Shown here: piece by piece, positions 8,553 to 50,600 of the stretch
Numbering within the stretch: the first letter of the stretch is position 1
Layout: each line of letters begins with the position of its first letter
Origin: Coleofasciculus chthonoplastes F2-STO-03
Lineage (GTDB): Bacteria; Cyanobacteriota; Cyanobacteriia; Cyanobacteriales; Coleofasciculaceae
Assembly: GCA_040222015.1 (NCBI GenBank)
Contig: JAVJWO010000030.1
Location: 30,324-94,323, forward strand
Direction of reading: 5' to 3'
DNA length: 64,000 bases
Translations under genes and position numbers: made by a program
Notes under the pieces: generated by a model
Seen by the model: only the letters and a program-made list of their open reading frames with translations
What the model was told of the DNA's origin: nothing
Database searches by the model: none

Positions 8553-8941
8553 ACTTTACCCTGACATAAGACATGAAGACCAAAAGTATCTGTCACCTAA
8601 CAGATAAGAACCTAAGAGTGATTGTGTAGGGGCGATTCGCTTATATCAATTAACAACACCAATCCACTTAATAGACTCGGGTCGCCCTTTAATAGTCTTG
8701 CGTTTAGTCTAAACTGAAATAATTACCGATATCTGATGCAGGGCGACCCGATAAAATTAATCGGTGGGCGGTGTTAATTTGGTGCGGCGGGTCGCCCCTA
8801 CAAGGTGTCTTTTATGATGATTGATAACCCTTGCCCACCCGACTACTCTGATTAAGCCCAAACATTGTGTCACACTATTCAAATATAAGTGCTAAACTAA
8901 CCCTGAAATTGACTATATTCTCTATTACCTGTGATTAAGAC

Positions 8942-9817: not shown

Positions 9818-10051
9818 ATTAGTTAAGAGATGTCGTGGCGTGGCACACCTAAATTGATAGATTAAGGAACTGTAGGGGCACCATCCTTGCGCCCTTCCCG
9901 ATACCGCATCAGACGGGAAATTACGATAAAACTTTTTTGCTGTCGTGACGTACAGCGTTTTGGTGGGGGCGCTTCCGGTTGTAGAATAATAGGGGAAATT
10001 TCCCGCCCAACAGGTTGAGTCTTCAGAAAATACAGGAGGAATGAACCGCAG

Positions 10052-31818: not shown

Positions 31819-32267
31819 CCAAATATTCGCGACTGGATACCTCATCCATAGATAGTATGGGCAGTTAGAAAGCCGCGCCTCCTAGGTAAAGTACAAAAAG
31901 CTCTAAACCCCTACCGCCTTGGATTTACTCGCCGACGTTCGACATATTGCGCTTGCCTGTCGCCTGGGTAGTTACTTTCCTCGTGCTTTTAACCTGTACG
32001 GATATGGGTTATTTGATTGGGCTTGCGCCCCTCCCTTTCGGGGTAACGTTAGCTTCGCCAAAGTTATGTCTCGGTACTTTCTCCAACACACTGGCTTTTC
32101 CCTATAACCTGTTTAATGCTGGAGTTGTAGAGCTACAGACTAGCTACGCATCCGTAGGTACGAACTTTAACACTTAGACATAACGTAGTTCAAGGCAGAA
32201 CTTAGGCTGGTAAACATAGGCTTTTGGAAAGCCTCTTCCATGCCTAAGCATGGACGGGGTAGTTTAC
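31819..32267 (-). mobile_element. Non-autonomous IS200/IS605 (IscB-type) element with no ORF
   Basis: Subterminal hairpins CCATA-GATAG-TATGG and TCCATGC-CTAA-GCATGGA; flanked by TTCAT on the + strand; removal restores an ndhC/ndhK overlap. Confidence 0.8.
32030..32267 (-). ncRNA. HEARO / IscB omegaRNA scaffold
   Basis: Minus strand: GTAAACTACCCC..ACCAGCCTAAG..AACTACGTT..ACCTACGGATGCGTAGCTAGTCTGTAGCTCT..ATTAAACAG..CAGTGT..ATAACTTTGGCGAAGCTAACGTTACCCCGAAAGGGAG; motif order matches HEARO RNAs found upstream of iscB (recognised by eye). Confidence 0.85.
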
Positions 32268-32626
32268 GACCATTCTAAAGCTCCTTTGCGCCAAGCGTAA
32301 ACGAGGGCAACGACGAGAATTGCAATAAAGATGAGTGCTTCGATAAACGCTAGTAGTCCTAGCTGATTGAATGCCACTGCCCAAGGATAGAGAAAAACGG
32401 TCTCCACATCAAAAATCACGAAGACCAGGGCAAACATATAGTACCGGATATTGAACTGAATCCAAGCGCCCCCAATCGGTTCCATGCCAGATTCGTAGGT
32501 CGTCCGGCGTTCGGGGGAGCGGATGCTGGGTCGCAGCAGCTTCGAGGCTGCCAGCGCTAGAACTGGGACTAAACTGCTTGCCAGTAAGAACCCTAGGAAA
32601 TATTCGTAGCCGCTAAGAACAAACAC
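32264..32626 (-). CDS. ndhC: NAD(P)H-quinone oxidoreductase subunit 3
   Basis: [35 protein letters not shown] start. Confidence 0.98.
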
Positions 32627-32983
32627 AATAGGTAAGTATCCCTAAACCTTGTCGTTATTACTTCTTTACATTCTTTTACCCATTATAAGGGTGGTTGGTT
32701 TTCTGCAAATCGAAGCGGGTCAAGTTTTTCCGAGACGATGAGATTTCCGCGATCGCGCCTCTTTAAAAGACACACCTAGCGACTTGCGATAATCCGGAAA
32801 AATGGGCGGGAATATTTTTCCCGAAATTTCGCGAAAATGCCTGTAAATCAGGCTTCTATGATTAACCCCCTGTAGGGGCGACCCGCTTGCATCAATTAAC
32901 GACTGTATCCACTCAATTAGGTCGGGTCGCCCTATACTCAATTAGGTCGGGTCGCCCTATACTCAATTGGCAGATACGATAAT

Positions 32984-33018
32984 TAGATCCCCGCCTTCTT
33001 GGAGAAGGCGGGGATCTG
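32984..33018. repeat. Short palindromic dispersed repeat; possible NRPS terminator
   Basis: AGATCCCCGCCTTCTTGGAGAAGGCGGGGATCTG; near-identical copy at 40025-40058. Confidence 0.75.
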
Positions 33019-33037
33019 GTCATCATCCAGCAATTGT

Positions 33038-36000
33038 TCACACCAACTGGTTATAGTCCAGATAAGCCCGAATCACCTGACTATTAACTGACGGACAGAC
33101 AATATGCGTTCCAGCTAAACCCGCTAACGTATTCTGAGAGTCAAACGCCTGAGAGACTAAAGCCGCCGTTTCCAGATAGGGGCGTTGGTTTTCACCCACC
33201 CATTGAGTAAACAGGAACACCAACGGACTCAACGCATTGTCAGGCTGGGAACTGGCCACCTGAACCAGCTTGTCTTGCCACGTAGAATAATCCATCCATT
33301 CAATCGGATGACCGATCGCCCGGATTTCGTCCACCAATTGCCGTAAGGACACCATCTCCGGACTGACCAAGTGAAAGGCTTGACCGCATAAATCCGGTTG
33401 CTGGGACAGATGGATCATCGCTTGGGACACATAATCTACAGGAGTCAAGCTCAGATTTAAGTCCAACTCCGGCGCACTCCCCAATTGAATCAACCCTTTA
33501 ATTAATCGGTCAATCAGATCCCCCTGTTGAGACGCCCCAGTTTGGCTATGTCCCGTAATCATACCCGGTCGGTAAATCGACGCCGGAATCCCCCGTGCGT
33601 GTGCCTGTTTTACTAACTTCTCACCCACCCATTTACTTTGTGCATAACCATCAGATAAGTCATCCCCTGACTCCAAATCATCCTGTTCTAAAATCACCGA
33701 CATCTGAGCATAGCGCGGCGATTGAAACACATCCAGCGTTGAGACAAAGTGAACAGGTTTTACCTTAGTTTTACTGGCTAATTTGAGAATTTCCTGAGTC
33801 CCCAGGACATTAGCGGCTCGCAAGGCGCTGTAGGGATAAATTAAGTTTACAAACGCCCCATTATGATATATGCAGTCAATCTCGCTAGTTAACGCCTCGT
33901 ACTGCGACTCCGATAGTCCCAACCGAGGTTGGGCTAAATCGCCTAACACAGGGATAACTCGCGAGTCCAGCTTATCGGGTGAGAGTAAATAGCGGTTGAA
34001 GCTGGCGGCAATTTTTTGCTGACCCGCCTCTAAAGTTTTGGCACGCACTAAGCAATAGACAGTAGCATTCGTATGTTGGAGTAATTCCTGCAATAAAAAC
34101 GCGCCGAGAAAACCTGACGCACCTGTGATCAAAATCTTTTCCGGTGCGGTGTCCGGCTGACGATAAGGTTGGTCTGGATAAATCGTCTCATCCAAAACCG
34201 CATCGTTAGCTAAATTAGTGACTGCGATTGTACCCGTCACCGTCGTCCCATCCCCTTCAGGGTGAGACGAATCAGCCTCAGTCTTAGCGGTAATCGTTTG
34301 AGCCAGTTCCGCCACAGTCGGCGCTTCAAACAGAGCAAACAAGGGTAACTCCACTTGGAACGTTTCTCGCACCTGCGATAACAGTTGCGCCGTCAGTAGC
34401 GAATGTCCACCTAATTCAAAGAAGTTGTCATACACACCGACGCGCTCAACATCTAATACAGTTGCCCAGATTTGCGCTAACTCCTGTTCAACGGGGGTGC
34501 GCGGTGCGACGAAGGTATCCTGAGCCACCTGTTGCGCCTGGTTCGGGTCAGGTAACGCCTTGCGATCGACTTTACAGTTGGGTGTTAGGGGCAAACTATC
34601 CAGTAGCACAAAGGTCGAGGGAACCATATAAGTCGGTAACTTATCACTCAGGAACGATCGCAACTGCGCCAGCGATAATCCTTGAGTTTTGACGATATGT
34701 TCAAGGCTTTGATGGATTTGTTCCTGCTGAGTAGGTGTCGTCTCAAAAATTACTCCAGCGTTTTCCTCAACGTGCCAAACCACAGTGCCTTGCAGCCACA
34801 AGAGATTTTTCACTCCTGGTAATTTTACCCGCAAAAGTACGGGTTGGTTGTTGTGCCAAAATGTCGGGGTGAGTGCCTTTAAGCTAATCCCGTTGCGGCT
34901 GAAGTTTTGCGTCATCACTTCCACTTGTTGACCCGACTCAAATTCAGCACGACCATTGATCTGGAGGGGAACACGGGGTTCTGTCCGCAGATTTCCCAAG
35001 CTGCGATGGAGTTTCGCCTTCTGGCTGGTTGTGGTATCAAACTTAACGCCCACATAGTCTTCAAATTGCCAGACAATTTGACCTTGCAACCATAACGGAG
35101 TTTCGCCTCCGGGTAATTGTAATCGGAGCAATAGGCGTTGATCGATTTGCCAGCAGTTAGCCGTTGTTGCCTTGAAGCAAATCCCCTCATGGCTGATATT
35201 TTGCGTCATCACCTGGACTTTTTCACCGGACTCCAATTCCGCCAGACAATTAATGTGCAGCGGGATTCGGGGTTCTTGGCGGCGTAAATCATGAACCACT
35301 AATCCCTGGGTTTGAGCAATGTGTTTGATACTCTGACGTAAACGTTGCTGTTGGCTGGAGGTGGTGTCTAGGGAAACGTCTACCCATTCCAGGGATTTTG
35401 TGGCGATGGTTCCAGTGAGTTGGAGTTCATCGGGGACACCCGGAAACTGGCAGCGCAGTGTCAACGATTGACCGTTTCGCCAAGTGGCGGGACCATGAAG
35501 TAAACGAATACTATTGACCGAGAAATTGCTGGTGGTTAATTCAAGGTCTGGATTCCCCTCACACGCTACCCAACACGTCGTTTTTAGGGGAACATTTTCA
35601 ACGTCTAAGTCGCTGACGAGATAAGCAACCAAGCGCTTTTCGCCAGAACTGTCATCACGGGCGACAACCACCGCGTCTCGGATACCCGCATGTTGGTAGA
35701 GGGCAGATTCAATCTCGCCGAGTTCAATCCGAAAACCGCGAATTTTGACCTGGTGATCCAAGCGACCTAAGCATTCCAGAGTCCCATCTGGTAAGTATCG
35801 GGCTAAGTCTCCGGTGCGATAGAGACGGGCACCTGGTTCTGAACTAAAGGGATCGGGAATAAATCGTTCATCAGTTAAGTCAGGTCTATTAAAATATCCT
35901 CTTGCCAAACCAACGCCACCAATTAGTAATTCTCCCGGTTCTTCCACAGGTACAAATTTAATCGGGTCAGATGAGTTTTGCTCAGGATGAGCCAGATAAA

Positions 36001-37090
36001 TTTGGGTATTGGCAATGGGGCGACCGATGGGAATCGGTTTGTCCGCCGATTCTACTTGATGCACGGTTGACCAGATTGTGGTTTCCGTCGGTCCGTACAT
36101 ATTCCACACAGAAGCACTGCGTTCTAGGAGTTGACGCGCCAATTCGCGAGACATGGGTTCTCCACCACAGAGAATTTTAAGCTGGGGATTTCCCTGCCAC
36201 CCTGCGGCTAACAGCATCCGCCAAGTGGCGGGGGTAGCTTGCATGACGGTAGCACCGGATTCTTGCAAAACTGGGATTAACTGAGTCGCATCGGCGGCGA
36301 CATCTCGCGTCACTAAGACAATATCAGCGCCAACGATTAAGGGTAAATAGAGTTCCAATCCGGCGATGTCGAAGCAGATGGTAGTTACAGCCAGCAGAGT
36401 GTCATCGGGAGTGAGTCCAGGGGCGACACTCATTGAGGTGAGGAAATTTACTACCCCACGATGCAGCAATTGGACGCCTTTGGGTTTCCCGGTTGAACCG
36501 GAGGTATAAATCGTGTAGGCTAAATTGTCGGGGGTGACACCACTGTCTAAATTCTCTGGACTATGTTTAGCAATTGCCTGTTGATCTCTATCTAAGCAAA
36601 CGACTTGGACTTGGGTGTCGGGTAATCTTATGAGTTGGTCTTGTTCGGTGACGATGACAGAGACTTGGGAATCCTCAATCATTAACGCTAATCGTTCTTG
36701 GGGATAGGCGGGATCAAGGGGAATATAAGCGCCCCCGGCTTTGAGAATTCCTAATAAACCAACGACCATATCCAGCGATCGCTCTAGACAAATTCCCACC
36801 AGTACATCGGGTCTAACTTGGAGGGTTTGTAAGTAGTGGGCAACTTGGTTGGCGCGGCGGTTCAACTCCCGATAGGTTAGGGTTTGATCCTCAAAGCGAA
36901 TCGCGATTTTGTCGGGTGTGCGATCGCTCGCTTGTTCAATTAACTGATGAATACAGTAATCGGCTGGATAGTAGGTTTGGGTTTGATTTAACTGTTCAAG
37001 TCGCTGCTGTAATTCACGTTTTTTGCTTGTATCAGGAACACCGTGGAATTGCTCAATTTCTAATGATGATTGAAAGGAACGCTCTATCAT
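33038..37090 (-). CDS. Stand-alone NRPS-like A(PilZ-interrupted)-T-R reductase, predicted glycine-activating
   Basis: [44 protein letters not shown], then about 310 aa of three PilZ-like repeats, then LPTYMVP and [18 protein letters not shown]; R domain TGASGFLG and GYAQSKW; no condensation domain. Confidence 0.93.
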   Translation of the reverse strand: [1350 protein letters not shown]

Positions 37091-37651
37091 AATTTCCCCT
37101 TGGAACAGGTTTACAGTGGTCTTTTTTGAGGGGTAATTCGGTGATGCACCACTAAAAATCTAGCTATTCGCTGTTGTTTTATTTGATAGAGGGGTCAATT
37201 TTTTTAGTGTCACCTACTTATTTCCCTTGCCCTAATTTAATTCGGCAATTTGGTTGATCAAGTACATCGTCAAATCATTGATCAATAGTACGTTTATCCG
37301 AGTATAGGATCTTTGGTACTCAAGGGGGATAAAACTCTAGTCAGAAATCCGATGAATAGTGGATTTTGCATGATATTAGCTGGTTTTTGCCCGTTACTCT
37401 CAAAATTAGATAGGATTAGAAAACTCTCAAAAAATTAACTCGCTAAATTGTTTCTGGCTAGAGGGCTACAACCGGAATATTTTGTGCTTGACAATTGTAG
37501 ATGCACCCCCATAATCCTTCTCCATCACTAGAGCATAAATAATATAAACTCTTGAATTTCCTAGACAATGGTCTCAAGACGTCATCAATTTCTTCTGCCA
37601 TAGCGATACCAGAGGGATAGAGTATCTGTCACGGTTGAGTTAGTCGGCTTT

Positions 37652-37667
37652 TGTATCCTGTAATACA
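37652..37667. promoter_or_regulatory. Putative NtcA binding site
   Basis: TGTATCCTGTAATACA = TGTA-N8-TACA, about 560 bp upstream of the NRPS-like gene; no -10 box at the canonical 22-23 nt spacing. Confidence 0.5.
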
Positions 37668-37898
37668 GTCGTATGACTTGTATTTTTCTCTGTTTGTATA
37701 ATATTCTAATCCTCTCCTCTGATCAACAAGATGAGGCAAACTTTACTAAGTCTTTAAAATGAGCATCAATTCTTGATGAAGTTTTTAACGCTTGAGGGTA
37801 TAGTGATCCACTGGCGTCAATAATGTATCTTAACTTAACAAAAATAGAATAAATGAAATAAACAATAATGTTTCTCAAACAAATAGAGACACCCTAGC

Positions 37899-37948
37899 TA
37901 GGGGTGTAGGGTGTAGGGTGTAGGGTGTAGGGTGTAGGGTGTAGGGTA
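37899..37948. repeat. Heptamer tandem repeat (TAGGGTG)n
   Basis: About 7 copies immediately before the four-helix-bundle fragment. Confidence 0.9.
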
Positions 37949-37961
37949 TGGAGATTCGCCA

Positions 37962-38170
37962 GTGCAGTCTTATCGGGATTTACGGGTTTGGCAAGAGGCA
38001 ATGAATTTAGCTGAAGCTTGCTACCGAGGAACAAGAATATTTCCCAAAGAAGAACTTTATGGCATGATTGCCCAAATCCGTAGAGCAGCCGCGTCGATTC
38101 CTGCTAACATTGCCGAAGGTTACGGGCGACGAACTCGGGGAGAATATATCCAGTTTTTGTACATAGCCCA
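37962..38170 (+). pseudogene. Truncated four helix bundle (23S rRNA IVP / bAvd-like) gene
   Basis: SYRDLRVWQ..FPKEELYG..QIRRAAASIPANIAEGYGR..FLYIA; similarity then stops and the frame runs antisense into the permease. Confidence 0.85.
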
Positions 38171-38181
38171 CACCCCAATTC

Positions 38182-39630
38182 TCACTCCTGATACCCCGTT
38201 AATCCTAGCGCCGCCGCTTCTTCCGGGGCTTGAGCCACCAGTCGATTGCTGCGAAACACTAAAAAATAGACACTTGCCACAATCAGCGCTACGCCAATCC
38301 CCCAAACACCGCCTCGGTAATCAGGGATAGAAATACAAGCAACTAGGGCAAATGTGGCTAAAGCCAAACCCACAAATGCTCCCGCTGTTCCCAATGGACT
38401 TTCGTAGGGTTTCGGTAAATAGGGATTCCCTTTTAGCTTCATGTAGCTAACCATGACCAAAATATAGGAAATTAATGCCCCAAACACCGCCATATTCAAA
38501 ATCACAGCATCGACAGTTTGAATACCGATACTCACCAGTAGCACACAGATAAATCCAATCGTCGCCCCGGCAATTAATGCCCGATGGGGGGTATGATTTT
38601 TACTTGTGACTGATAACCAGCGGGGAAAGTACCCAGCACGGGATAGGGAGAAAATAATCCGTCCGTAAGCAAACATATTACCGTGAAGACTGGCAATTAA
38701 ACCACAAATCAGCGCCAGTGCTGTGACAATGGTACTGGTTGCGCCTGCGCCAAAGTAAGCCTCTAACCCATCTTGTAGGGGAGCATCGGATTGCCCAATC
38801 GCCACTGCGCCCCCGCCAACACCAGAGTTAATCACTACGGTGAAAATTGACAAAATAATCAGGGTAACCATGCCAGAAATCATTCCCGCTGGCATATTTC
38901 GAGGCACATCATCGGTTTCCTCTGCCGTCATCGGTAATTGTTCAATCGCCAGATACAACCATATTGCAAAAGGAATCGCGCCAAACACTCCAAACCAGCC
39001 ATTGGGTAACCAGGTTTCTGATTGTCCCGGTTCAGCCGGAATATTAAACAGCAGGTCAAAATTGAATTCACCCGATACCAGCATACTCACATAGAAGATG
39101 CTTAATACCGTTATCGCGATGATGGTTAGCCAAAGACAGACTGTCACACTCAGTTCAAACCCTCGGATATTAATTGCCAAAAAAACAGCGTAGGCAAATA
39201 CCCAGATAAAAAAGCTGGGCAGATTGGGAAATAAGGGCTTGAGGTAATTGCTCAAACTGAACACCAGCGCCGCATTTGCGAGGACATATTCAATCGTGAC
39301 GGTAACCCCACAAATAAAACCCCAAAAAGGACCGAGGGCATAACGGGTGAACGAATAGAATCCGCCCGCATGGGGGAGGGCGGCTGAGAGTTCAGCACTG
39401 CTATAGACTAAACAGAGATACATAATTGCCATTAAGACAGCGGCAATACTAAACCCCCAGAATCCTCCGGAGGCTAAACCATAGTTCCAACCATAGAAAT
39501 CACCTGAGATAACAGCGCCAACTCCTAAACCCCATAAGAGTAAACTACCCGCATTTCCTTGAAGTTGTCGCCGTCTGATATAACCATTATTTACTGTTTC
39601 GTAAGTAGCAATACCTTGAGAATGTTGCAT
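38182..39630 (-). CDS. APC-family amino acid/amine permease, ethanolamine permease (Eat)-like
   Basis: YIRRRQL..LLWGLGVGAVISGDFYGWNYGL, LPHAGG, AIWLYLAIEQLPMTAEE, C-terminal RLVAQAPEE; about 12 TM; GAGG RBS. Confidence 0.88.
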   Translation of the reverse strand: MQHSQGIATYETVNNGYIRRRQLQGNAGSLLLWGLGVGAVISGDFYGWNYGLASGGFWGFSIAAVLMAIMYLCLVYSSAELSAALPHAGGFYSFTRYALGPFWGFICGVTVTIEYVLANAALVFSLSNYLKPLFPNLPSFFIWVFAYAVFLAINIRGFELSVTVCLWLTIIAITVLSIFYVSMLVSGEFNFDLLFNIPAEPGQSETWLPNGWFGVFGAIPFAIWLYLAIEQLPMTAEETDDVPRNMPAGMISGMVTLIILSIFTVVINSGVGGGAVAIGQSDAPLQDGLEAYFGAGATSTIVTALALICGLIASLHGNMFAYGRIIFSLSRAGYFPRWLSVTSKNHTPHRALIAGATIGFICVLLVSIGIQTVDAVILNMAVFGALISYILVMVSYMKLKGNPYLPKPYESPLGTAGAFVGLALATFALVACISIPDYRGGVWGIGVALIVASVYFLVFRSNRLVAQAPEEAAALGLTGYQE

Positions 39631-40231
39631 CGATAAACCTTATCCTCAACTGTTTACCTTGCACCCCAATAACCATTCATTCAGCTCAAACCTTTGGTCG
39701 GTTAAGCTCACCAGATTGGGCGACGTTTCCTGACCTCTTTTCCCCAGTTGAGAGGAAAAACGGATGCCGCCCGTTCATTGCTGATTGCTAGTGGTTGATT
39801 GCCATGAACCATCAACCATGAACCTCCGAAGGAGTACTCTGTAGTTCTTTGACAGCATCATTCCCTCATTCAGCAAATCGTAATACAGATCCGGATTAAC
39901 GGCTGAGCTAGTTTAACGACTGATACAAAAGCGTTCCCTTTAAAAAACTTGATCAAAGTGTATTACACAAATCCTAGACTTGGATCGTCAGTTGTATGAC
40001 GGTTTGGTCGTAAGTGAGGTACACAGATCCCCGACTTCTTAAAGAAGTCGGGGATCTGGCTGGAATCGACTATATTTCATCAACCACGAAATAAACTGTA
40101 AAATTAGCGTCGCCAGAGTAAAAAGATACTGTAAAAACAGTTTAAAAATTGGCGGAAATTATTTTATTTTTTCCATTTATGTTTTGCGTCTGTTATAGTT
40201 CAAAAATAATGGTTATGCTGTGGCTAAGTGT

Positions 40232-43144
40232 ATGAATAGTTTCCAAGATGCGTTTATTTCTTACGGACGAGCAGACAGTAAAGCTTTCGCCACCAAGCTG
40301 TACCAACGACTAATTGAAGCCGAATTCAAGATTTGGTTTGACCAAAACGATATTCCTCTCGGCGTCGATTTTCAAAATCAAATTGACGATGGTTTGGAGA
40401 AGTCAGATAACTTCTTATTCATTATTGCGCCGCATTCGGTGAACTCACCCTATTGTGGTAAAGAAATAGAGTTAGCGATTAAACGCAACAAACGGATTAT
40501 TCCTTTATTGCATGTTGAACAGATTAGCCGAGAAACCTGGCAACAGCGTAATCCCAATGGAACGGATGAGGCGTGGGAGGCTTATAAAGCTAAGGGGCTA
40601 CATTCGAGCTTCCCCAATATGCATCCCCTGATTGGTAAAATTAACTGGGTGTATTTCCGGGAAGGAATTGATGACTTTGAAACCTCTTTAGTCGGTTTGC
40701 TGGAGTTGTTGAAAAGACATGGAGATTACGTCAGACAGCATACTCAATTTTTAGCCAAAGCCCTAGACTGGGAAAAACACCAAAAACAATCGCGCTACTT
40801 ACTGGTTGGGGAAGAGCGCGTGAAAGCAGAATCCTGGTTAAGGGTGCGCTTTGAGACTGAGCAGCCGCCTTGTATTCCCACGGATTTGCACTGTGAGTAT
40901 ATTGGCGAAAGCACCAAGAATGCTAACAACCTGATGACGCAGGTGTTTGTCTCCTACTCGGAGAAAAATAAAAGCGTCATGGAGAAGGTGGTAAAAACGC
41001 TGCGGCGAGAGGGAATCACGATTTGGACGAATAAGACGGATATTAAAACCGGTAAAGATTTCCAAGCGCAAATCGATAACGGCATCGAAGCGGCGGATAA
41101 TTTTATTTATTTAATCTCAAAAGTTTTATTAGTCAAAGCCCTGAAATGGCAGCAGCAAAATCGTAATCCCAGTATTTTATTGCGCGGGTACAATTTACAG
41201 CAGGCTCAAAATTGGCTCAAAATAGCCAAACAGCGCCGGGAACACCCCCCGTTACCCGTGCATGAAGCGTTTATTAATGAAAGCAGTCAGCAACCGCCTG
41301 ACACCTCCATCGATGTGTTCGTTTCCTACTCCCGTACCGATTCCGATTTTACCCGTCGCTTAAATGAGGCGCTGCAAGTTCAGGGAAAAACCACCTGGTT
41401 TGATCAGGAAAGTATTGCGTCAGGGAGTGATTTTCAGCAGGAAATTTATCGGGGGATTGAAGGGTCTAATATTTTTCTATTTATTATCTCCCCCAGTTCG
41501 GTTAATTCGCCTTACTGTGCTGATGAGGTGGAGTATGCGGTGAAGATGAACAAGCGAGTGGTAACGGTACTGTATCGGGAGGTGCCAACCGATCAACTCC
41601 ACCCGATTATGGCAAGTGTTCAGTGGATTAATTTTAACAAGAATGGGGGAGATTTTTATGCGAATTTCAGTGAATTAGTCAGGGCGTTAGATACAGATCG
41701 GGAACATTTACAGGTGCATACACGCTTACTGGCGCGGGCGCTGGAGTGGGACAGGGAAGGGCGTGATCCCAGTTTTTTGCTGCGGGGGAAGGATTTAGAA
41801 ACCTCAGAACAATGGCTTAAGCAAGCAGCGGATAAGGAACCGAAACCGACTGAACTTCAGAAACAGTACATTACAATTAGCCGCAAATCTCCCTTCCGTA
41901 AACCTAAACGTAGTACTGTATTGTTAGGCAGTTTGGCGGCGTCAGTTTTGGTGATGGGAGTGCGTTTTTTGGGACTTTTACAGCCCGTTGAATTGGCGGC
42001 TTATGGTCATTTTATGCGCCTGCGCTCCAGTGAACTTCAAGATGATCGTTTTGTGATTGTGGAAGTTACGGATGACGATATTAATAATGTTTTGCTGAAA
42101 GAGTATGAAGGGGGAAAAGGAACCATACCTGATGCGGCGCTTAACGATATTTTGGAGAAATTGGCACCGTATCAACCGCAGTTGATTGGGTTAGATGTGA
42201 TCCGCGATTTCCAAGTGCAGTCTGATCAGAAAGAATTAGCGACTCGTTTGGAACAAGATAACCGTCTGATTGGGGTGTGTAAGTTGAGTTATGAGGAGAA
42301 ACAGGGCACTATCCCGCCGCCGGAAATTCCCGAAGCCCAACTGTCAGAACGGGTGGGTTTCAGTGATTTAGTCCAATATGGTAATTCAGTAGTACGTCGC
42401 CATTTATTGGTTCATGCACCCGACGAAACTTGCCCAATCATGAGTGCATTTAGTCTCGCGATCGCACGTCGTTATTTAGAGGCTGAGGGTCAGGTGTACA
42501 AACCGCCGTTTAGTCCGGAGGGAGAGTATTTACAGCCACTGCAATTTGGCAGTACGATTTTTCCTTCCTTAGGTGCGTTTTCTGGCGGGTATCAAGGGCA
42601 ATCTGATGCTAACAGTACCTATCAACTTTTACTGAATTACCGTTCACATCAGGGTGATCCCCGGCAATTTGCGCCACGAGTAACCTTGACACAAGTTCTG
42701 GAGAATCAGCTTTCTGAAGCCGATGTGAAAGACCGAATTGTGATGATCGGGATTACGGCGAGAACCAGTGTCAATGATTATTTTTCTACACCCTACGGTG
42801 AAATTGCTGGTGTCGTTCTTCAGGCGCAGATGGCGAGTCAAATTATCAGTGCGGTTCTCGATGGACGAATGCTGATTTGGTGGTTGCCATTTTGGGGCGA
42901 TGTGCTGTGGATTTTGGGTTGGTCATTGGTTGGTGGTGTGATTGTTTGGCGCTTCCAGCAACCTTTATATATTGGTTTAGCAGGGGGGGTTGGTTTAATT
43001 GTTTTGTACGGCACTTGTTACGTGATGTTCAATGCTTTGGGAGGTTGGATACTGTTAGTTCCACCAGCGTTGGCTTTGTTGGCGACAAAAGGGATTGTCC
43101 TATATGTGACTTCCATGCCAACAGGATCGCGTTTTAAATTTTAG
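40232..43144 (+). CDS. TIR-TIR(partial)-TIR-TM-CHASE2 membrane protein
   Basis: AFISYGRADS..CGKEIE; VFVSYSEKN (truncated); VFVSYSRTDS..CADEVE; then LQPVELAAY, IGLDVIRD, VGFSD..VRRHLL, GVVLQAQMASQIIS and three TM helices; ATG at 40232 (GTG at 40220 possible). Confidence 0.9.
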   Translation: MNSFQDAFISYGRADSKAFATKLYQRLIEAEFKIWFDQNDIPLGVDFQNQIDDGLEKSDNFLFIIAPHSVNSPYCGKEIELAIKRNKRIIPLLHVEQISRETWQQRNPNGTDEAWEAYKAKGLHSSFPNMHPLIGKINWVYFREGIDDFETSLVGLLELLKRHGDYVRQHTQFLAKALDWEKHQKQSRYLLVGEERVKAESWLRVRFETEQPPCIPTDLHCEYIGESTKNANNLMTQVFVSYSEKNKSVMEKVVKTLRREGITIWTNKTDIKTGKDFQAQIDNGIEAADNFIYLISKVLLVKALKWQQQNRNPSILLRGYNLQQAQNWLKIAKQRREHPPLPVHEAFINESSQQPPDTSIDVFVSYSRTDSDFTRRLNEALQVQGKTTWFDQESIASGSDFQQEIYRGIEGSNIFLFIISPSSVNSPYCADEVEYAVKMNKRVVTVLYREVPTDQLHPIMASVQWINFNKNGGDFYANFSELVRALDTDREHLQVHTRLLARALEWDREGRDPSFLLRGKDLETSEQWLKQAADKEPKPTELQKQYITISRKSPFRKPKRSTVLLGSLAASVLVMGVRFLGLLQPVELAAYGHFMRLRSSELQDDRFVIVEVTDDDINNVLLKEYEGGKGTIPDAALNDILEKLAPYQPQLIGLDVIRDFQVQSDQKELATRLEQDNRLIGVCKLSYEEKQGTIPPPEIPEAQLSERVGFSDLVQYGNSVVRRHLLVHAPDETCPIMSAFSLAIARRYLEAEGQVYKPPFSPEGEYLQPLQFGSTIFPSLGAFSGGYQGQSDANSTYQLLLNYRSHQGDPRQFAPRVTLTQVLENQLSEADVKDRIVMIGITARTSVNDYFSTPYGEIAGVVLQAQMASQIISAVLDGRMLIWWLPFWGDVLWILGWSLVGGVIVWRFQQPLYIGLAGGVGLIVLYGTCYVMFNALGGWILLVPPALALLATKGIVLYVTSMPTGSRFKF

Positions 43145-43639
43145 GTTAACCTGTAGGGTGGGTTAGGCGGTACTTAATTGATGAAACCAAACATTTAATA
43201 ATATATACGCCGTAACCCACCAATTTACCATTTGCTGGCGTCGCGACATTGGCAGGCACTCCTTTTTCAGACCTGGGAACGAGGCTACCTGGAAGCTGAC
43301 ATGCTCCCCAAAAGTTCTAGTGCAAGAAAGCAGAAATAACTGAACAGCTAATATCTCCCCCAGCTTCCCCAGCTCCCTCTGCTCCCCCTGCTTCATCGTA
43401 TCTACGAAGCGGCTCTTGTATTTTTGCCGCGCTGCACTAGGACGTCGGGTCGCGATCGCAACATTCTACACCATCCCTTGCAACCCTTTATTCCTCAAAG
43501 GATACAATAATTTAAATACTCTTTATGTAGATAAATGGTTCTTTATAATTAAAGCTAGTATCGTGATAATAAGAGGACAAAAAACTCAAAACTATCCATT
43601 TTTTAGTATTTACAGTAAACACTATTTCAGGTATCGACA

Positions 43640-44413
43640 ATGAAAATTAAATCACTTGCCGGACAAATCTTATTAGTTAGCGCTCTCACCTTCCCCTTAG
43701 TTGATTCTGTAATTAACCCACCCCAAGTGCAGGCGCAATCAGTCACTCAGCGGATCGGGTCGCTCTTTTCATCCCAGAAAAAGTTGGGAACCGCATCGGG
43801 TCGTTCTAGAGGTGGGGCGATTAGGGGGGAATGTCCAGCCGCGGTAGATAAATCCATTATTGCCCTGGGACCAGAAAATAATTTAGGGTCAACCCTTAAA
43901 GCAGATCCGACTTTATTATTTTATATGCCTTATGCCCAATCTATGGGTGTTAAATATGGTAGATTTGTCCTCTTGGATGAAGCCGGAAATTTTGTATTGC
44001 AACAACCGTTTTTTGTGGAACTTCCTGAAAATCCCGGCATTGTTAGATTTACCCCACCCACGACTGAATCGGTTGGGGCAAATGAGAAATCTATAGAAGT
44101 GGGTAAGCGGTATCAGTGGGTCTTTTCCGTTATTTGCAATTTCAAACAACCAGCGGGTAATCCCACTGTCAGTGGCTGGATTCAACGGGTTGCACCCAGT
44201 CCTGAATTGGAGAATCAGCTTGAGCAAGAGTCTGCAGACACAGACTATTTAACGTACCTCAATCATGGCATTTGGTATGAGGCAATTAACCAACTTGCCC
44301 AAAACCGGGATGCCTATTCAGAGGATTGGGCTGGGCTATTAAACCACTATGATTTATCTGAGTTTACTCAAAGTTCGATTGGTGAATTGCGTCCTGTCAC
44401 CGCAGGAAATTAA
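43640..44413 (+). CDS. DUF928 family secreted protein
   Basis: Signal peptide, GGAIRGEC, PTLLFYMPY, YQWVFSVIC, GWIQRV, GIWYEA. Confidence 0.92.
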   Translation: MKIKSLAGQILLVSALTFPLVDSVINPPQVQAQSVTQRIGSLFSSQKKLGTASGRSRGGAIRGECPAAVDKSIIALGPENNLGSTLKADPTLLFYMPYAQSMGVKYGRFVLLDEAGNFVLQQPFFVELPENPGIVRFTPPTTESVGANEKSIEVGKRYQWVFSVICNFKQPAGNPTVSGWIQRVAPSPELENQLEQESADTDYLTYLNHGIWYEAINQLAQNRDAYSEDWAGLLNHYDLSEFTQSSIGELRPVTAGN

Positions 44414-44536
44414 GAACTTGTCACGTTTTCAGGTCAATGAATGCCATTGAGGGCGACCCGACAATAGTTATCAGAATGTTCACATCATTTTGTACAGCGG
44501 TCGCCCCTATTATTGACATAAAAAAACAAATGACAA

Positions 44537-47455
44537 TTAAAGCCAGTTGCCTATCAGAATATAAGGCGCCCAGTAGCGGGGAGACTTGTACTCAGTATTT
44601 TGTAATAAATGCTCTTGGGCGCGACGTAGGGCTTCCGCTTTGGTCACATTTGGTTGAGCCAAATTTTGATAGAATTGCTTCATAAACTCTACACTGGACT
44701 CATCGTCCACACTCCAAAGCGTTGCGATGGCGCTTCCAGCACCCGCACGCACGGTAGTTCCCGCAATCCCTAGATCTGCGCGTTTGTCACCATCAGCCGT
44801 TTCGCAAGCACTAAAGACTAATAATTCGATCGCATCGACGCGGGTGGCGTTTCTGAGCCGAAACAGTTCATCTAATTCCTTCACCGTCAGCTTACCATCT
44901 GCGGCGAGGATAAAGGTATTGTCCGGATCGGAACTAAATTTGCCATGGGTGGCGATATGGATGACTTGAAACGCCGATTTATTCAGTTTTTGGTTAAAAT
45001 TTGCCCGGGTAAATTCTTGCTCACGTAATGTACTCAGGGCAACTCCCGTCTCAGCAATTTTATCCAACTCTTTCTCAACATTCGAGAGTTTCGCAAACTG
45101 TTCAAATCCTACAGGCGGTTGAACTAAACTAGCCGCTAGAACCGTTATTTGCTGCTTGTTTAACGGTTTTGGGTTTTGCATAACTAAGTTCGGGGCGACA
45201 ACGAGGGCATACTTTTGAAACAAATAGTTTTCGCCATCATAAAGCGCCGCTAGGGGAACATTCCGCAGAGAACCATCGAGGACAAAGACCAAGGTTTTGA
45301 TATTATTTTTATCTAATCGTTCTCGAATCGGTTGAATCAGCCACTTGTAGACCTGTTGAGACTGATTTCGCAGCGTTTCCGATACGAATACCTCCTGCAA
45401 ATTGCCACGTAACCCAGTCAGGGTTTTGCTCAGTTCAGCTTCAGGGACATCGCTGCGATAGGCGTATAAGTCGTCATCTCCTGGCAATTTGAGGATAATT
45501 TCTAGGCGATTACTGAGAATAATTGGGTAAAGAAACGCCGCCGTTGGGTCTTTTTCCTCAATCACTCGGTCAATCGCCTCTGGACTGGATTCAGAACAGG
45601 GTTCTTGCAAAAAGTTCTCCAGTTCAGCGATTTGCAGCGACTCCATCACCCGGCGGGCTTGTTTGAGGTTCTCTTGGCGGGGATTCTGGGAATTCAGAAG
45701 TAAATCCACAAAGGTGCGATAAACGGGTTCTTCTACCTTTTCTCGGAACGTAAATTGGAAATCTTCAGCGCTAGCGCTTAAATCTCGGCGCAGGGCTTGC
45801 AGTATATCGAAGGTTGTTTGGTAGGCAAACCGTGCCTTTTCTATCTCTCCTTGGTGATGGTAAATGCGTCCCAATTGCCAACTCCAACGATAGGCACTAT
45901 CCCACGCCTGAATGGATTGGGATAGGTTGAGGGCGTCTTGGGTGAGTTGTTGCGCGGATGACCAATCTTTTGTTTGTTCGTATCGATACCCCAAATAACC
46001 CAGCGCATTGGCTTTAGCGCCGGGATTGTTGAGTTGTTCGGCGTTGGCGTTAGCCGCATTTAAAAGCTGGTCAATGGTGTCCCAGGAGGGCGTCGAGGTG
46101 AGGGAAAGTCGGGAGGAGATATCCTTGAGGCGGATTAAATTTTGGGCGAAGTTGGTTTGGGCGAGAATGGTGTTGTAACTGGGGGGACGTTGGGTTAATT
46201 GAGTCTGAATCTGAGTCCAGTTTAGCTGGGAAAGTTGGGCTTGGATTTGGGATAACCATTCGTTAAGGGTGGTGGAGAATTCATCGGTTGAGGAAACCCC
46301 TGGCGGTAACCAGTCGTTGGCGGTTTGGCTTTTGGAGGCTTTAATGGTCTGTAACCATTGTTCGACATCCAGTAAGAGACTCAGGCGATTTAGTTGTGCC
46401 TGGATTTGAGGGTCAGAGGTGGCGTGGGCGGCGTTTTGATAGGCGTCTAATGCGGTTTGAGTATAGAGACGCGCTTGCTCAAAATCCGCCGAGTCTTGGG
46501 TTTGTTGATAGGCGTCACGCTGGCGTTGACTGAAATCTCTGGCGGTATTGCCTAAACTTAGGTGGGTCGAACCGAGGACGGAGGGCTGTTGTAGGTCTAT
46601 ACTTAGTTCTAAAATGGCTTGGGATAGGTTTAAATGACCCAGGATTTGCAGTAAGCTACCGAGACTATTTAAGCCTGTGAGTTTGATTGGAGTGGCTTGG
46701 GTTTGTTGGCGAAGCTTGTCGAGGAGGGGTTTGGGTTCCTGTTGTGCTAATTCCTTACAGTCTGTGTCGGTCAATCCAAATACTTGTAATAATGTCGTGC
46801 AGGCGCGGGGATGAATGCCCAAGGCTTGCAGCGCTTGCGCCTGATTGATTAAACTGCGGCTAACTCCGGTGTCATCGGCCAATTGCTGATAGAGTTGGGT
46901 GGCTTGTTTCCAGGTGATGAGTGCGGCGTTGGCGTCTCCCTGGGCGAGTTGCAGGGTTCCCTGATTGTTGAGGGCTTGGGCGTGAACTTTTTTGTAGTCA
47001 GTGGTCGTGTTTTGGGGCTGGGTTTGGAGTAAATTTAAGCTGAGTGCGATCGCGTCTTGGGCTTGTGACCATTCTCCTAATTGCTGATAGGCGAGGGCAA
47101 GATTACTCAAAACCATAGCTTGATTGAGTGTATCACCTTGGGCGGCAAAGGTGGAGGCGGCGTCTTGCCAAATTGTTACGGCGGCGGTATATTTCCCGGT
47201 TTGGTACAGTTGGTTTCCCTGTTGTACCCGTTGGATGGTGGGCGATTGAGTCTGAGGATTAGGTAGAGGCGATCGCGCTAATGTGGTGGGATGCTCCCGA
47301 TTTTGTGGTAAGCTAGCCTGTACGATGGGAATCCGTGTGGGCAGAAAAGGGGTTTCCCAGTTCAACAGCAGAGTCAGCAGAGTCGTGCTAATCCCCCAGC
47401 CGAGATACTTGAGGAACTTTTCCAGAGAGGTTCGCGATCGATATTGTTTTTTCAT
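44537..47455 (-). CDS. TPR + CHAT (caspase-like) domain protein, likely exported
   Basis: TPR helices, ELENFLQEPC, DGSLRNVPLAALYDG, HIATHG and FSACETA (His/Cys dyad), LWSVDD, YWAPYILIGNWL. Confidence 0.94.
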   Translation of the reverse strand: MKKQYRSRTSLEKFLKYLGWGISTTLLTLLLNWETPFLPTRIPIVQASLPQNREHPTTLARSPLPNPQTQSPTIQRVQQGNQLYQTGKYTAAVTIWQDAASTFAAQGDTLNQAMVLSNLALAYQQLGEWSQAQDAIALSLNLLQTQPQNTTTDYKKVHAQALNNQGTLQLAQGDANAALITWKQATQLYQQLADDTGVSRSLINQAQALQALGIHPRACTTLLQVFGLTDTDCKELAQQEPKPLLDKLRQQTQATPIKLTGLNSLGSLLQILGHLNLSQAILELSIDLQQPSVLGSTHLSLGNTARDFSQRQRDAYQQTQDSADFEQARLYTQTALDAYQNAAHATSDPQIQAQLNRLSLLLDVEQWLQTIKASKSQTANDWLPPGVSSTDEFSTTLNEWLSQIQAQLSQLNWTQIQTQLTQRPPSYNTILAQTNFAQNLIRLKDISSRLSLTSTPSWDTIDQLLNAANANAEQLNNPGAKANALGYLGYRYEQTKDWSSAQQLTQDALNLSQSIQAWDSAYRWSWQLGRIYHHQGEIEKARFAYQTTFDILQALRRDLSASAEDFQFTFREKVEEPVYRTFVDLLLNSQNPRQENLKQARRVMESLQIAELENFLQEPCSESSPEAIDRVIEEKDPTAAFLYPIILSNRLEIILKLPGDDDLYAYRSDVPEAELSKTLTGLRGNLQEVFVSETLRNQSQQVYKWLIQPIRERLDKNNIKTLVFVLDGSLRNVPLAALYDGENYLFQKYALVVAPNLVMQNPKPLNKQQITVLAASLVQPPVGFEQFAKLSNVEKELDKIAETGVALSTLREQEFTRANFNQKLNKSAFQVIHIATHGKFSSDPDNTFILAADGKLTVKELDELFRLRNATRVDAIELLVFSACETADGDKRADLGIAGTTVRAGAGSAIATLWSVDDESSVEFMKQFYQNLAQPNVTKAEALRRAQEHLLQNTEYKSPRYWAPYILIGNWL

Positions 47456-47629
47456 AGTCTCGAAAATTACCTACTTAACTGGAATGGCACTGAAAATTTG
47501 CATTAGGGAATCACCGAAACCTTTGATATACCGTAGGGTGGGCATTGCCCACCAAAATACCAGTCAGTGGCATTCTACTTAACTGGGCGGTTTGGGCGAT
47601 TTCTAATCGCCAGGGCTTCTATCAACAAA

Positions 47630-50600
47630 TTAATTTCCAGGTAGATTCTGACAATAATCAACCATTTGCCCAGACATTTGGGAGGTAACCGTCGGCGGAT
47701 TAGCCGTCAGCACCACCGTACCATCGGCAAGCTTCACCCAACCTTGCGCTTCAATAATTTGTTTGGCAGAATTAGTCGCACTCTCCCTGGTTTTTCCCGT
47801 CTCGCCAGTCCCCCCATCGGCTTCCCCATTCACCACACTACCCAAATCGGCTAGTACATAATTACTGCCAAGGGCGTCATCGGGACTAGGAGGCAAACCA
47901 CCGCGTCCAGTGATAGTGAATTCACTGCCCATACCATTAGCGCTACAGCGACTCACGATTTGCCGGGAAGAATCCGCCAGTTGTGTCGGTAATTCAGTCA
48001 ATCCCCCACTGGGGTCAATCGCCAGGGTGGTAATTTCCACTTGACCTTGGGCACCAAACTCTGAACTAGCATCAATATCATTCGTGCGGTTGCCATTGAT
48101 AGCAGGGCGTGCCTGAATCCCAAAAATTTGTTGGGCACTCAGGTTAATACGACCACCATTGCCAGCTTCAGCTTTGGCGACAATATCACTGCCATTGTCT
48201 CCTTGTGAAGACAGAGCAATCAGGAAGCCCGTGTCAGAGTTAAGCTTAATATCGATATTTCCACCATTGGCTGTACCACTGGCATTAGCAGAAATTAGGC
48301 TTTCATTACTCAGGAGTAATAATTTGCCAATATTTAACTCAATATTTGCCCCACCGCCTTGAGTGTCAGCCGTCAGTTGTCCGCGATTCAAAGTAACCGA
48401 ATCAGCCGTGACAGTTAAGTTGCCAGCAGTACCTCCACCTTGGCTGCTGACAGTGGCGCTAGAGTTTCCGCCAAGGGTAAGTCGGTTAGCGGTAATGTCG
48501 AGGTTTCCAGCGTTACCTCCTTTCGTGGCTTCGGCTTCTAGGCGGCTATTATTGGAAAGTTCAACCGTACCTCCTGAAGCCTCGATTGAGACATTACCTC
48601 CCTCCCCGCTTTGAGTAGAGGCAGATATCTCACTGTCATTGTTTAACTGTAAAGATGTTAAATCCTGGAGTTGAATATTGCCCCCACTACCTGCCTCTGT
48701 GGTGGCGGCTAACCGGGCTGAGTTGTCCAGAATCACTTCTGGCACACTCACCATGAGGCTACCTGCGGTGCCCTTGGCTGTGCTGCTGACAGTGGCGCTA
48801 GAATTTCCGCCAAGGGTAAGTCGGTTAGCGGTAATTTCCAGGTTTCCAGCGTTGCCTCCCTGTGTGGCTTCGGCTTCTAGACGGCTATTATCAGTAAGTT
48901 CAACTATACCTCCTGAAGCCTTAATTGACACATCACCTCCGTTCCCGCTTTGAGTGGAGGCAGATATCTCACTGTTATTGTTTAACTGTAAAGATCTTAA
49001 ATCCTGGAGTTGAATATTGCCCCCACTACCTGCCTCTGTGGTGGCGGCTAACCGGGCTGAGTTTTCCAGAATCACTTCTGGCACACTCACCATGAGGCTA
49101 CCTGCGGTGCCCTTGGTTGTGCTGCTGACAGCAACTGCTGCCCTATCTCCAATACTCAACTGCCCTGTCGTAATTTTGACATTGCCAGCACTACCGCCAT
49201 GAGTTGCTTGTGCGAGAATACCACCGGGTTCTTTATTTTCTACGTCAGTTACAGTGCCGCTGAGTTCGACTGACTCGGAAGCTGTTACCGTGATATTTCC
49301 CGCTTTTCCGCTTTGAGTGGATGTTGAAATTAAGCTATCAATAACCCGTAGTGTCTGTAGCCCTTGCAGAATGATATCGGCTGAGTCTTCTGGGCTTCCT
49401 CCGGCATCCGTTTCGGCAGTGATTTGTCCGCCGCGATTGAGGGTAACGCGGCTAGCGGTAATATTCACATCACCGGCTGTACCAGAGTTCTTCGCACTGA
49501 CGGTTATAGCTGCCTCATCTTCAATATTCAACTGTCCTGTCGTAAGCTTGATATTGCCAGCATTCCCCGCCGTACTCTCTTCGGCAGCACTGGAGATTTT
49601 ACCTTTCTGCCCCAACTCTACTCTGCCGTTTTCGGCATTAATTGTGACATTACCCGCATTGCCTTGATCCTTGGTGCTAGCTGAGATCACTGCATTATCT
49701 ACCGTAAGCGAACCCGTTTTTAATGTGATGCTTCCTGCATTCACCACTCCCAAAGTACTGGCATTGATTTTCGCATCATTTGTTAAGTGAATTGATGCCC
49801 CACTCAGTTCAATCTTTGCGTCATTTTGCGCTGGTTTAGTTCCTCCGACTTGATTCAAAATGCTGCTGTTGTTAACGGTAATTGTCCGAGTAGCATTAAA
49901 CCTAATATTTCCAGGTATACTATTTGCTGTATTGATTGGAATAGGATCACTGTCTATGTCAAAAATACCTTGACTACCTTTTTGGGCTTGAAAAGAGTAG
50001 TAGTGAAAGTTCCCATTTCCTGTACCTGAAATAGAGACGTGGGGAATGCTTTTAGAATCTTCAACATCGTCATTAGCTTTCAAGATGAAATTACCATCAA
50101 TACTCTGGGCTTGGTTCAGTGAATCATTATAAGATTGAGAATTGACGGGTAAAGTAGAATTAGGATACCTATCATTTTTAACTGAAACCTGAAGGTTATA
50201 CTTTTCTCCCTGCTGTAATGACTGACCTTCAATCTTACCGTCTGAAGCTGAGGAAGAGAAAGCTCCAACGCCGACAATATACCTTCTATCTTCGTCAAAC
50301 TTATATTTAATGTAAGAATCTAATCCAGTTTTACTTCCTCCTGCACCTTGTGAGATACTAGAGTCGTCATTTTCTGCTAATAAATTACCTGTATCGTCGA
50401 ATAAGAAAAGTTGGGTGTCTATAAACCGATTGGGCAAACCTGCATTAATTTGAGTCTCATTGGTGAGGGATATTGATTCAGCTTTTATTGTAATATCACC
50501 CCCCTTTCCTTCATCACTACTAGAGGCAGTTATGTTGCTCTTGTTGATTGTAACTTCAGAACCTCCAGTAATGTTGATGTCTCCACTCTTTCCTTGACTG

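Follow-up and report, generated by a model that had tools for sequence, protein, structure and literature searches.

What would a one-module synthetase that ends in a reductase do with a row of PilZ units in the middle of its adenylation domain? The question is raised by a locus of the cyanobacterium Coleofasciculus chthonoplastes F2-STO-03, within the 64,000-nucleotide stretch that we analysed (the window; positions 30,324 to 94,323, forward strand, of contig JAVJWO010000030.1, assembly GCA_040222015.1). The locus encodes an enzyme with an adenylation (A), a carrier (T) and a thioester reductase (R) domain, preceded on the same strand by a permease resembling the ethanolamine permease Eat. 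PilZ domains are the terminal modules through which bis-(3'-5')-cyclic dimeric guanosine monophosphate (c-di-GMP) acts on enzymes such as cellulose synthase. Here they lie inside the catalytic domain, and this embedded array is the most interesting feature of the locus and apparently undescribed in print.

PilZ units within the adenylation domain

The enzyme gene divides as follows (coordinates are those of the window; residues in brackets).

33038..37090 (-), whole A(PilZx3)-T-R gene, protein P0001 of 1350 amino acids; open reading frame (ORF) call, Pfam, NCBIfam
35609..36937 (-), adenylation core and first half of the C-terminal subdomain (52-494); Pfam AMP-binding and AMP-binding_C, motifs
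35297..35602 (-), unit 1, PilZ-like and degenerate (497-598); hhalign to units 2 and 3, AlphaFold2
34991..35290 (-), PilZ unit 2 (601-700) with RRQEPR and NISHEG; Pfam PilZ 2.3e-15 on its own
34691..34990 (-), PilZ unit 3 (701-800) with RTEPR and NFSRNG; Pfam PilZ 1.6e-11 on its own
34541..34690 (-), remainder of the A-domain C-terminal subdomain (801-850) with motifs A9 and A10; motif positions
34292..34486 (-), carrier domain (869-933) with the GGHSL serine; Pfam PP-binding 2.4e-15
33050..34138 (-), thioester reductase domain (985-1347); TIGR01746, TGASGFLG and YAQSK motifs

A sequence-only reading of the stretch had described a single A-T-R module that lacks a condensation domain and ends in a reductase, and this was borne out at the level of both ORF and domains. 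Pfam assigned AMP-binding to residues 52-400 (1.3e-89), two stretches to PilZ (2.4e-27), residues 869-933 to PP-binding and 988-1225 to NAD_binding_4 (7.7e-72); a condensation domain (PF00668) was not found in the scan of the 1350-residue protein. The A domain passed TIGR01733 (455.2 bits, cut-off 317.4) and the R domain passed the thioester reductase model TIGR01746 (350.7 bits, cut-off 213.35). None of the named NCBIfam equivalogs was reached, neither MxcG (659.8 bits, cut-off 2300) nor Lys2 (TIGR03443; 595.7 bits, cut-off 1030.1), carboxylic acid reductase (CAR, NF041592; 237.2 bits, cut-off 1300) or AusA. The motifs SGSTGKPKG, NMYGPTE, YRTGDLAR, LPTYMVP, NCKVDR, GGHSL, TGASGFLG and YAQSK are all present, and the genome (7.72 Mb assembly, 99.99% complete) encodes one phosphopantetheinyl transferase.

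The sequence-only reading mentioned possible c-di-GMP control but did not state that PilZ repeats of about 300 residues split the A domain. The insert sits exactly between motifs A8 (KIRGFRIE, from residue 449) and A9 (LPTYMVP, from residue 818), which are 361 residues apart and enclose three repeats of about 100 residues each; A10 (NCKVDR) follows and holds K840. The AMP-binding_C match, at residues 459-494, covers only positions 1-36 of the 76 in the profile. The PilZ family PF07238 (cut-off 22.5 bits) scored 95.7 bits on the whole protein, 57.2 bits on unit 2 alone and 44.9 bits on unit 3 alone. Unit 1 is homologous to units 2 and 3 in a profile comparison (hhalign probability 99.9%, E 9.1e-34, 31% identity over 94 columns). 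PilZ domains bind c-di-GMP through the motifs RxxxR and (D/N)xSxxG, and units 2 and 3 have both.

An AlphaFold2 model of residues 400-870, built on an 18-row alignment, folded each of the three units into strands and a C-terminal helix, with a block-wise predicted local distance difference test (pLDDT) mostly of 70-92 (80-92 for unit 1). When the model was compared with the PDB by Foldseek, two-domain c-di-GMP receptors came out on top, PlzA (7mie, 4.8e-10) first. Further matches were MotI (5vx6), VCA0042 (2rde and 3kyg), MrkH and YcgR, with 5kgo, 5y6f and 4p00 also among the entries. Single PilZ domains (4i86, 4xrn, 4rt1, 5xly) matched with target template modelling scores of 0.70-0.76, and the interrupted A domain 5wmm matched the A-lobe part. 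The insert shares with the PilZ receptors BcsA, Alg44, YcgR, PlzA, MotI and MrkH the PF07238 units with RxxxR and (D/N)xSxxG, and with the two-domain receptors YcgR, PlzA and MotI a degenerate first barrel and an arginine motif in the linker. It is thus plausible from these motifs that units 2 and 3 bind c-di-GMP and that the enzyme would be controlled in this way. It differs from known PilZ-gated enzymes in that the host is an adenylating domain of the ANL superfamily and the PilZ units are internal instead of terminal.

A domains that are intact apart from a foreign domain between A8 and A9 are known as the a8-a9 interrupted type, an example being TioS A-M-A (PDB 5WMM; Lundy, Mori, Garneau-Tsodikova 2020). 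According to a 2020 categorisation (PMC8341866) and a 2024 review (PMC11355689), this is the commonest site of natural A-domain interruptions, and it tolerates even two inserted domains (PMC11355689). The inserts described there are catalytic (methyltransferase, Ox, KR, MOx), whereas here the insert is a receptor fold in one to three copies. It also falls outside the definition quoted from PMC8341866, which requires the insert to be a catalytic part of some other enzyme domain. A term search for 'PilZ' gave 0 occurrences in both articles. No paper on a PilZ-interrupted A domain was found in the open full-text literature, subscription-only papers lying outside its scope, and direct control of a non-ribosomal synthetase by a second messenger was not described in searchable papers.

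The genome holds 17 GGDEF domain matches and only three Pfam PilZ matches, two of which are those in the A-T-R enzyme. The third belongs to an 876-residue BcsA-like glycosyltransferase (cellulose synthase) that adjoins BcsB (contig C47, locus L055, 6760-12161, minus strand).

The insert in orthologues and in other synthetases

For comparison we used 60 relatives and the organism's own genome, 61 genomes in all. Orthologues of the enzyme were found in all 8 same-genus genomes (89-95% identity) and, outside the genus, in G010, G013, G014, G015, G019, G024, G028 (partial), G030, G034 and G046, with ORFs of 1041-1398 residues. A candidate in G009 was a different non-ribosomal peptide synthetase (NRPS). 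In a phylum-wide sample of 400 genomes, with two candidates scored per genome, orthologues were confined to the window's own family. The A8-A9 spacing varies with the number of PilZ units:

Own genus (9 proteins), spacing of 361-364 residues, three PilZ units
G024, spacing of 373 residues, three PilZ units
Seven other genera, spacing of 262-287 residues, two PilZ units
G034, spacing of 69 residues, no PilZ unit

Unit 2 has R(R/H)xExR and (D/N)I(S/G)xxG in 17 of 17 insert-bearing orthologues, among which the insert region is 54-93% identical. In other genera unit 1 reads SVERVPL...DLSxSG in the alignment, that is, it has one arginine and an intact second motif. Unit 2 of G014 has about 20 additional residues straight after RHTEPRVPL, and its first arginine pair is RH instead of RR. 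The protein of G034 retains both ends of the insert, DLNVERIP and QSMDYLIETQGLS. In a tree computed without the insert columns G034 was sister to the PilZ-bearing G013 with 100/100 support, and this position indicates that the insert was lost by secondary deletion. Judged from this comparison, the insert is dispensable for keeping the enzyme, and G034 offers a natural control.

Similar inserts occur in other proteins. A word-based search with residues 495-810 returned 18 clusters, all combining an A domain with PilZ; one protein, P0020, is a C-A(PilZx2)-T-TE synthetase with the code DILQLGMIW. Exhaustive HMMER searching with residues 497-805 against 1.84 billion representative sequences gave 84 proteins at E up to 0.001, 54 of them at least 1000 residues long. 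Strict motif patterns placed 33 of the 84 matches between A8 and A9/A10. Among the 25 of the 54 long proteins that were scanned with Pfam, AMP-binding was present in 24 and PilZ (E up to 1e-9) in 20. Their architectures include multi-module NRPSs with a terminal thioesterase, C-A(PilZ)-T-R and A(PilZ)-T-R proteins and KS-AT-KR-ACP-C-A(PilZ)-T hybrids. Two proteins stand apart: P0060 (1321 residues) has Condensation, PilZ and PP-binding matches without a detectable AMP-binding core and looks like a decayed module, and P0013 (1421 residues) is an A(PilZ)-T-R protein that is longer at its N terminus by a region listed as PF04313, which may stem from a fusion in gene calling.

The pocket codes of 56 PilZ-interrupted A domains comprised 50 different nine-residue strings, and six were of the DILQLG type. 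Single-unit inserts (about 160 residues between A8 and A9, n=21) have (D/N)xSxxG in 19 of 21 cases and a single arginine of the PERxP type; in most inserts of 255-359 residues (two units, but three in P0049) there is an additional unit with the full RxxxR...(D/N)xSxxG pair. The named carriers are Microcoleus, Oscillatoria, Laspinema, unclassified cyanobacteria, a Chloroflexota metagenome-assembled genome and Candidatus Thiomargarita, and their proteins bear generic public names ('amino acid adenylation domain-containing protein'). A tblastn search for PilZ found none among the 72 listed loci from a generic NRPS-motif pattern search of genome contigs. Metagenome contigs searched with P0090 held relatives of at most 53% identity, with PilZ-like inserts in 2 of 49 loci and an Eat-like gene in 0 of 49, a result uninformative on linkage in the P0090 lineage.

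Predicted substrate and product, and the permease partner

Which substrate does the interrupted domain activate? Read from motif anchors at the Stachelhaus positions, the pocket consists of D241, I242, L245, Q284, L307, G309, M331, I339, W340 and K840, i.e. DILQLGMIWK. The string is identical in 17 of 18 aligned orthologues; G013 reads V at position 330. Letter for letter it equals the signature shared by four glycine-activating domains with MOX characteristics, as given in a 2025 survey of A-domain signatures (PMC12283262), and no further paper with the string was found in the full-text literature search. The proposal that this is a glycine code was thereby supported. Like the enzyme, those glycine domains are interrupted; their insert is described there as a monooxygenase that cleaves the glycine unit, whereas here it is PilZ and release is reductive. 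The equivalents of Asp235 and Lys517 are kept, which leads one to expect an alpha-amino acid as substrate and not a quaternary amine. From the pocket code we infer glycine as the substrate. The PDB search lent no independent support: LgrA, whose module 2 loads glycine, was the top match, and we rejected it as an argument because its rank results from adding up two A domains, each of about 310-319 bits; single-domain chains such as ApnA A1 (418.5 bits) score higher.

The enzyme resembles the A-T-R(-R) reductases, namely fungal ATRR, the diatom PtNRPS1 (tryptophan to tryptophanol), Lys2, the CARs and the MxaA reductase domain. These are described as single modules without a condensation domain in which an acid is activated, loaded on the carrier and released by an NAD(P)H-dependent thioester reductase as aldehyde or alcohol. 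The fungal glycine-betaine reductase ATRR, invoked as an analogue by the sequence-only reading, did not hold up as such: the enzyme has one R domain (a single NAD_binding_4 match, 988-1225) versus the A-T-R1-R2 order of ATRR, and Asp235 is kept. Among solved structures the R domain is nearest to MxaA (4u7w, 6.7e-102), a four-electron, alcohol-forming reductase. This closeness is a weak hint that the product may be ethanolamine rather than the aldehyde; aminoacetaldehyde, ethanolamine or a pyrazine would all be plausible products of a glycine-loaded module. ATRR, PtNRPS1, Lys2, the CARs and MxaA are not known to carry a PilZ insert.

Upstream of the enzyme gene lie the following features.

38182..39630 (-), Eat-like APC permease, protein P0002 of 482 amino acids; TIGR00908, synteny
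37091..38181 (no strand), spacer of 1091 bp with a palindrome, heptamers, a hairpin and a gene fragment
37652-37667, TGTA-N8-TACA palindrome, one occurrence
37907-37889 (-), terminator-like hairpin, weak
about 37900-37955, run of CCCTACA-type heptamers
37962-38181 (+), truncated 23S_rRNA_IVP (four-helix-bundle) gene fragment; 7e-26, profile positions 1-66 of 106

The co-oriented Eat-like permease that had been noted about 1.1 kb upstream is thus present, 1091 bp from the enzyme gene on the same strand. It scored 359.5 bits against the ethanolamine permease model TIGR00908, just below the cut-off of 381.75 bits, and we therefore file it as Eat-like only; Eat-like relatives score 362-367 bits. 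The next-best family follows at 102 bits, more than 250 bits lower, and similarity to the D-Ser/D-Ala/Gly transporter family is weak (67.8 bits).

To assess linkage, ORFs on 20-kb contexts of the 18 orthologous loci were matched to the genes of the window. In 13 of the 18 loci the permease was a same-strand neighbour of the enzyme, namely in 7 of the 8 same-genus genomes and in G010, G014, G019, G030, G034 and G046. In G014 the order is reversed, with the enzyme first and a gap of 178 bp; G030 has two permease copies, separated from the enzyme by another gene. Contig ends truncate the loci of G006, G024 and G028, which were counted neither as linked nor as unlinked. Of the 19 genomes that encode the enzyme, 18 also carry a close permease orthologue (64-99% identity); all 42 that lack the enzyme lack such an orthologue too. 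The 61 genomes are related and hence not independent samples. The only enzyme-bearing genome without such an orthologue, G028, is 83% complete. Within one genus, G019 has both genes and G035 neither. This patchy co-occurrence supports a functional pair, and the sequence-only reading's own check, whether homologues are linked to Eat-like permeases, came out in favour of its proposal. No other conserved neighbour of the enzyme was seen across the 18 loci; ndhCKJ downstream is linked to it within the genus only.

EutB was not found in the 99.99%-complete genome, so classical ethanolamine catabolism is not the partner of the permease. More distant permease relatives (51-60% identity) occur in 3 of the 42 enzyme-less genomes, G043, G050 and G060. 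In G050 the relative (55% identity) has a histidine decarboxylase gene (NF002748, 460.7 bits, cut-off 305) as its immediate neighbour. In this locus (L050), from another cyanobacterial family, the decarboxylase (9790-10914, minus strand) is directly upstream of the permease (8207-9661, minus strand; TIGR00908, 364.5 bits). Decarboxylase and amine transporter cassettes are like our locus in pairing an APC permease with an enzyme for making a primary amine from an amino acid; they differ in that the present enzyme is predicted to reduce the carboxyl group at the expense of ATP and NAD(P)H instead of removing it. By this analogy, the data fit a permease that would carry a small primary amine.

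The sequence-only reading had further proposed nitrogen control, and here it found no support. The palindrome between the two genes does exist, once. Shuffled sequences are expected to hold 0.58 such sites per window, and 47 of 100 shuffles held at least one; a TAN3T box about 22 nt downstream was not found when the sequence was read by eye, the nearest lying at about 28 nt. Of 8 spacers from the genus, 6 retain GTA-N8-TAC; in other genera the corresponding position has no such site. Together these results leave control by NtcA unsupported. Promoter and terminator scans were at shuffle level (12 versus 11.6 and 13 versus 8.1), and an Rfam scan of 32000-41000 gave no RNA element or riboswitch in the spacer. 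The ORF of the 23S_rRNA_IVP fragment extends antisense into the 3' end of the permease gene, and the same spacer of G005 holds a 118-residue homologue. Contigs of relatives with 92-99% similarity came from four metatranscriptome runs (labelled hypersaline-lake and marine). Covered are the entire permease, a stretch of the spacer together with the start codon of the enzyme (36932-37896) and part of the R domain (33372-34339). As contigs of relatives, with possible DNA carry-over and indistinguishable strand, they prove neither transcription nor an operon, and gaps in their coverage carry no weight.

Elsewhere in the window, an HEARO RNA (RF02033) was detected at 32043-32267 (-), between ndhC and ndhK (141.9 bits, gathering threshold 83, E 2.1e-30, Rfam). 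Four adjacent genes at 40220-53320 encode a 974-residue protein with three TIR domains and CHASE2, a DUF928 protein and two further ORFs; by eye, a 972-residue ORF is CHAT-like and one of 1896 residues is filamentous-haemagglutinin-like. The genes upstream of the permease differ in other genomes of the genus.

Proposed mechanism and its alternatives

The reading that we propose, and hold to be evenly poised between right and wrong, is a two-gene unit: a c-di-GMP-gated glycine reductase that would make aminoacetaldehyde or ethanolamine, and a permease that would move the amine. The A domain would adenylate glycine and load it onto the carrier domain, from which the terminal NAD(P)H-dependent reductase would release aminoacetaldehyde, probably followed by reduction to ethanolamine. 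The PilZ units lie at the hinge-side loop of the mobile C-terminal lobe of the A domain, and in ANL enzymes this A lobe swings by roughly 140 degrees between the adenylation and the thiolation position. If units 2 and 3 bound c-di-GMP at their linker and barrel, in the manner of YcgR or PlzA, this could clamp or stiffen the array and thereby alter this swing, so that the second messenger would gate the output of the enzyme directly, by activation or by inhibition. The permease would export the amine, possibly in exchange for the amino acid. Architecture, motifs, code, gene linkage and co-occurrence are observed, and from them we infer substrate, product, c-di-GMP binding and the directions of regulation and transport.

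Several observations weigh against this reading. Unit 1 alone gave no Pfam match; RxxxR is missing from it, and where (D/N)xSxxG is expected it has NFSVNS, without the final glycine in this genus. The AlphaFold2 model is weak overall (mean pLDDT 65.2, predicted template modelling score 0.33), and parts of the A lobe fall below pLDDT 50 and yield no geometry. By sequence, searching the PDB with the single protein or a profile, no solved PilZ protein was matched at E up to 1. The single-unit inserts of other synthetases are devoid of a PilZ-type RxxxR, so the ancestral insert may have had a role unrelated to c-di-GMP. Specificity codes come from modular NRPSs and may mislead for stand-alone reductases, and two-electron and four-electron R domains are indistinguishable from sequence. 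The permease misses its family cut-off; G013 and G015 carry both genes unlinked, on different contigs and clear of contig ends; and the 1.1-kb spacer, with its hairpin and gene fragment, leaves room for separate transcription of the two genes.

Part of this would be explained if the PilZ units were no c-di-GMP receptors here and served instead as structural spacing or for protein docking, for instance as a tether to a membrane or secretion complex; some PilZ-fold proteins do dock or tether without binding a nucleotide. The degenerate unit 1, the single-arginine inserts of other NRPSs, the missing sequence match to solved c-di-GMP-bound proteins and the loss of the insert from G034, which kept the gene pair, all agree with such a role. 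We nevertheless consider it rather unlikely, since units 2 and 3 retain both binding motifs and each exceed the Pfam threshold alone, unit 2 keeps its motifs in every insert-bearing orthologue in a region 54-93% identical, and the fold matches are ligand-bound receptors. About equally doubtful is the idea that the permease imports the substrate (glycine or another small amino acid or amine) into a scavenging or detoxifying route. APC permeases are frequently importers, the weak similarity to the D-Ser/D-Ala/Gly transporters would suit this, and conservation of the permease with the enzyme fits either way, as the direction of transport is unreadable from sequence. Against it, the ethanolamine permease is by far the best family (359.5 versus 102 bits), a relative is paired with the amine-forming histidine decarboxylase, partner transporters of decarboxylases are typically product exporters or antiporters, and every cell makes glycine.

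An enzyme that does not act on free glycine alone, using another small acid or serving as a loading or release module in trans for an NRPS encoded elsewhere, appears distinctly improbable. PilZ-interrupted glycine-type A domains do occur inside true NRPSs such as P0020; P0079, P0083 and P0093 start with a glycine-code A(PilZ) module, and the genome has many further NRPS genes. The enzyme itself, however, lacks a condensation domain, no other NRPS gene is conserved alongside it in the 18 loci, release needs no partner with the R domain placed straight after the T domain, and the sole conserved neighbour is a permease of the small-amine type. Hardly credible is an accidental neighbourhood in which the locus is an NtcA-controlled nitrogen pair. 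The palindrome and its partial conservation in 6 of 8 same-genus spacers speak for it, but such a site arises readily by chance (47 of 100 shuffles hold at least one), and this one is lacking at the corresponding position in other genera and, as read by eye, has no correctly spaced -10 box. Linkage and co-occurrence, moreover, extend over several genera and persist through rearrangement.

The two-gene unit might also have a wider role, which we regard as a long shot: that of a c-di-GMP-gated signal generator, whose glycine-derived C2 amine (ethanolamine, aminoacetaldehyde or pyrazine), made when c-di-GMP changes and released by the permease, would be sensed by a dedicated dCache-type chemoreceptor of a Tax/Pix-like system and steer gliding or aggregation of mat filaments. 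The idea stems from the neighbourhood of chemoreceptor genes. In G010, G019, G030 and G046 (loci L036, L039, L041 and L037) the cassette has a dCache_1-HAMP-GAF chemoreceptor gene as a neighbour, joined in G010 by CheW and a PatA-type regulator. In G060 (L051) an Eat-like permease without the enzyme is flanked by a chemoreceptor on either side, in an operon of the order PatA-MCP-Eat-MCP-CheA. In their sensor parts these receptors share 37-62% identity; in the organism's own genome the dCache receptor is on another contig than the enzyme.

As a c-di-GMP-gated glycine reductase, the enzyme would be a minimal case: soluble and of a single module, with the simplest predicted substrate, an easily detected product and natural variants with two, three and zero PilZ units available for comparison. 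As the insert also occurs in many larger NRPS and PKS-NRPS proteins with varied substrate codes, such gating, if true, would suggest a general way for bacteria to tie natural-product assembly to the switch between motile and sessile life, and a ligand-controlled handle for the engineering of A domains. Separately, a route from glycine to ethanolamine would give cyanobacteria an ethanolamine source of a new kind.

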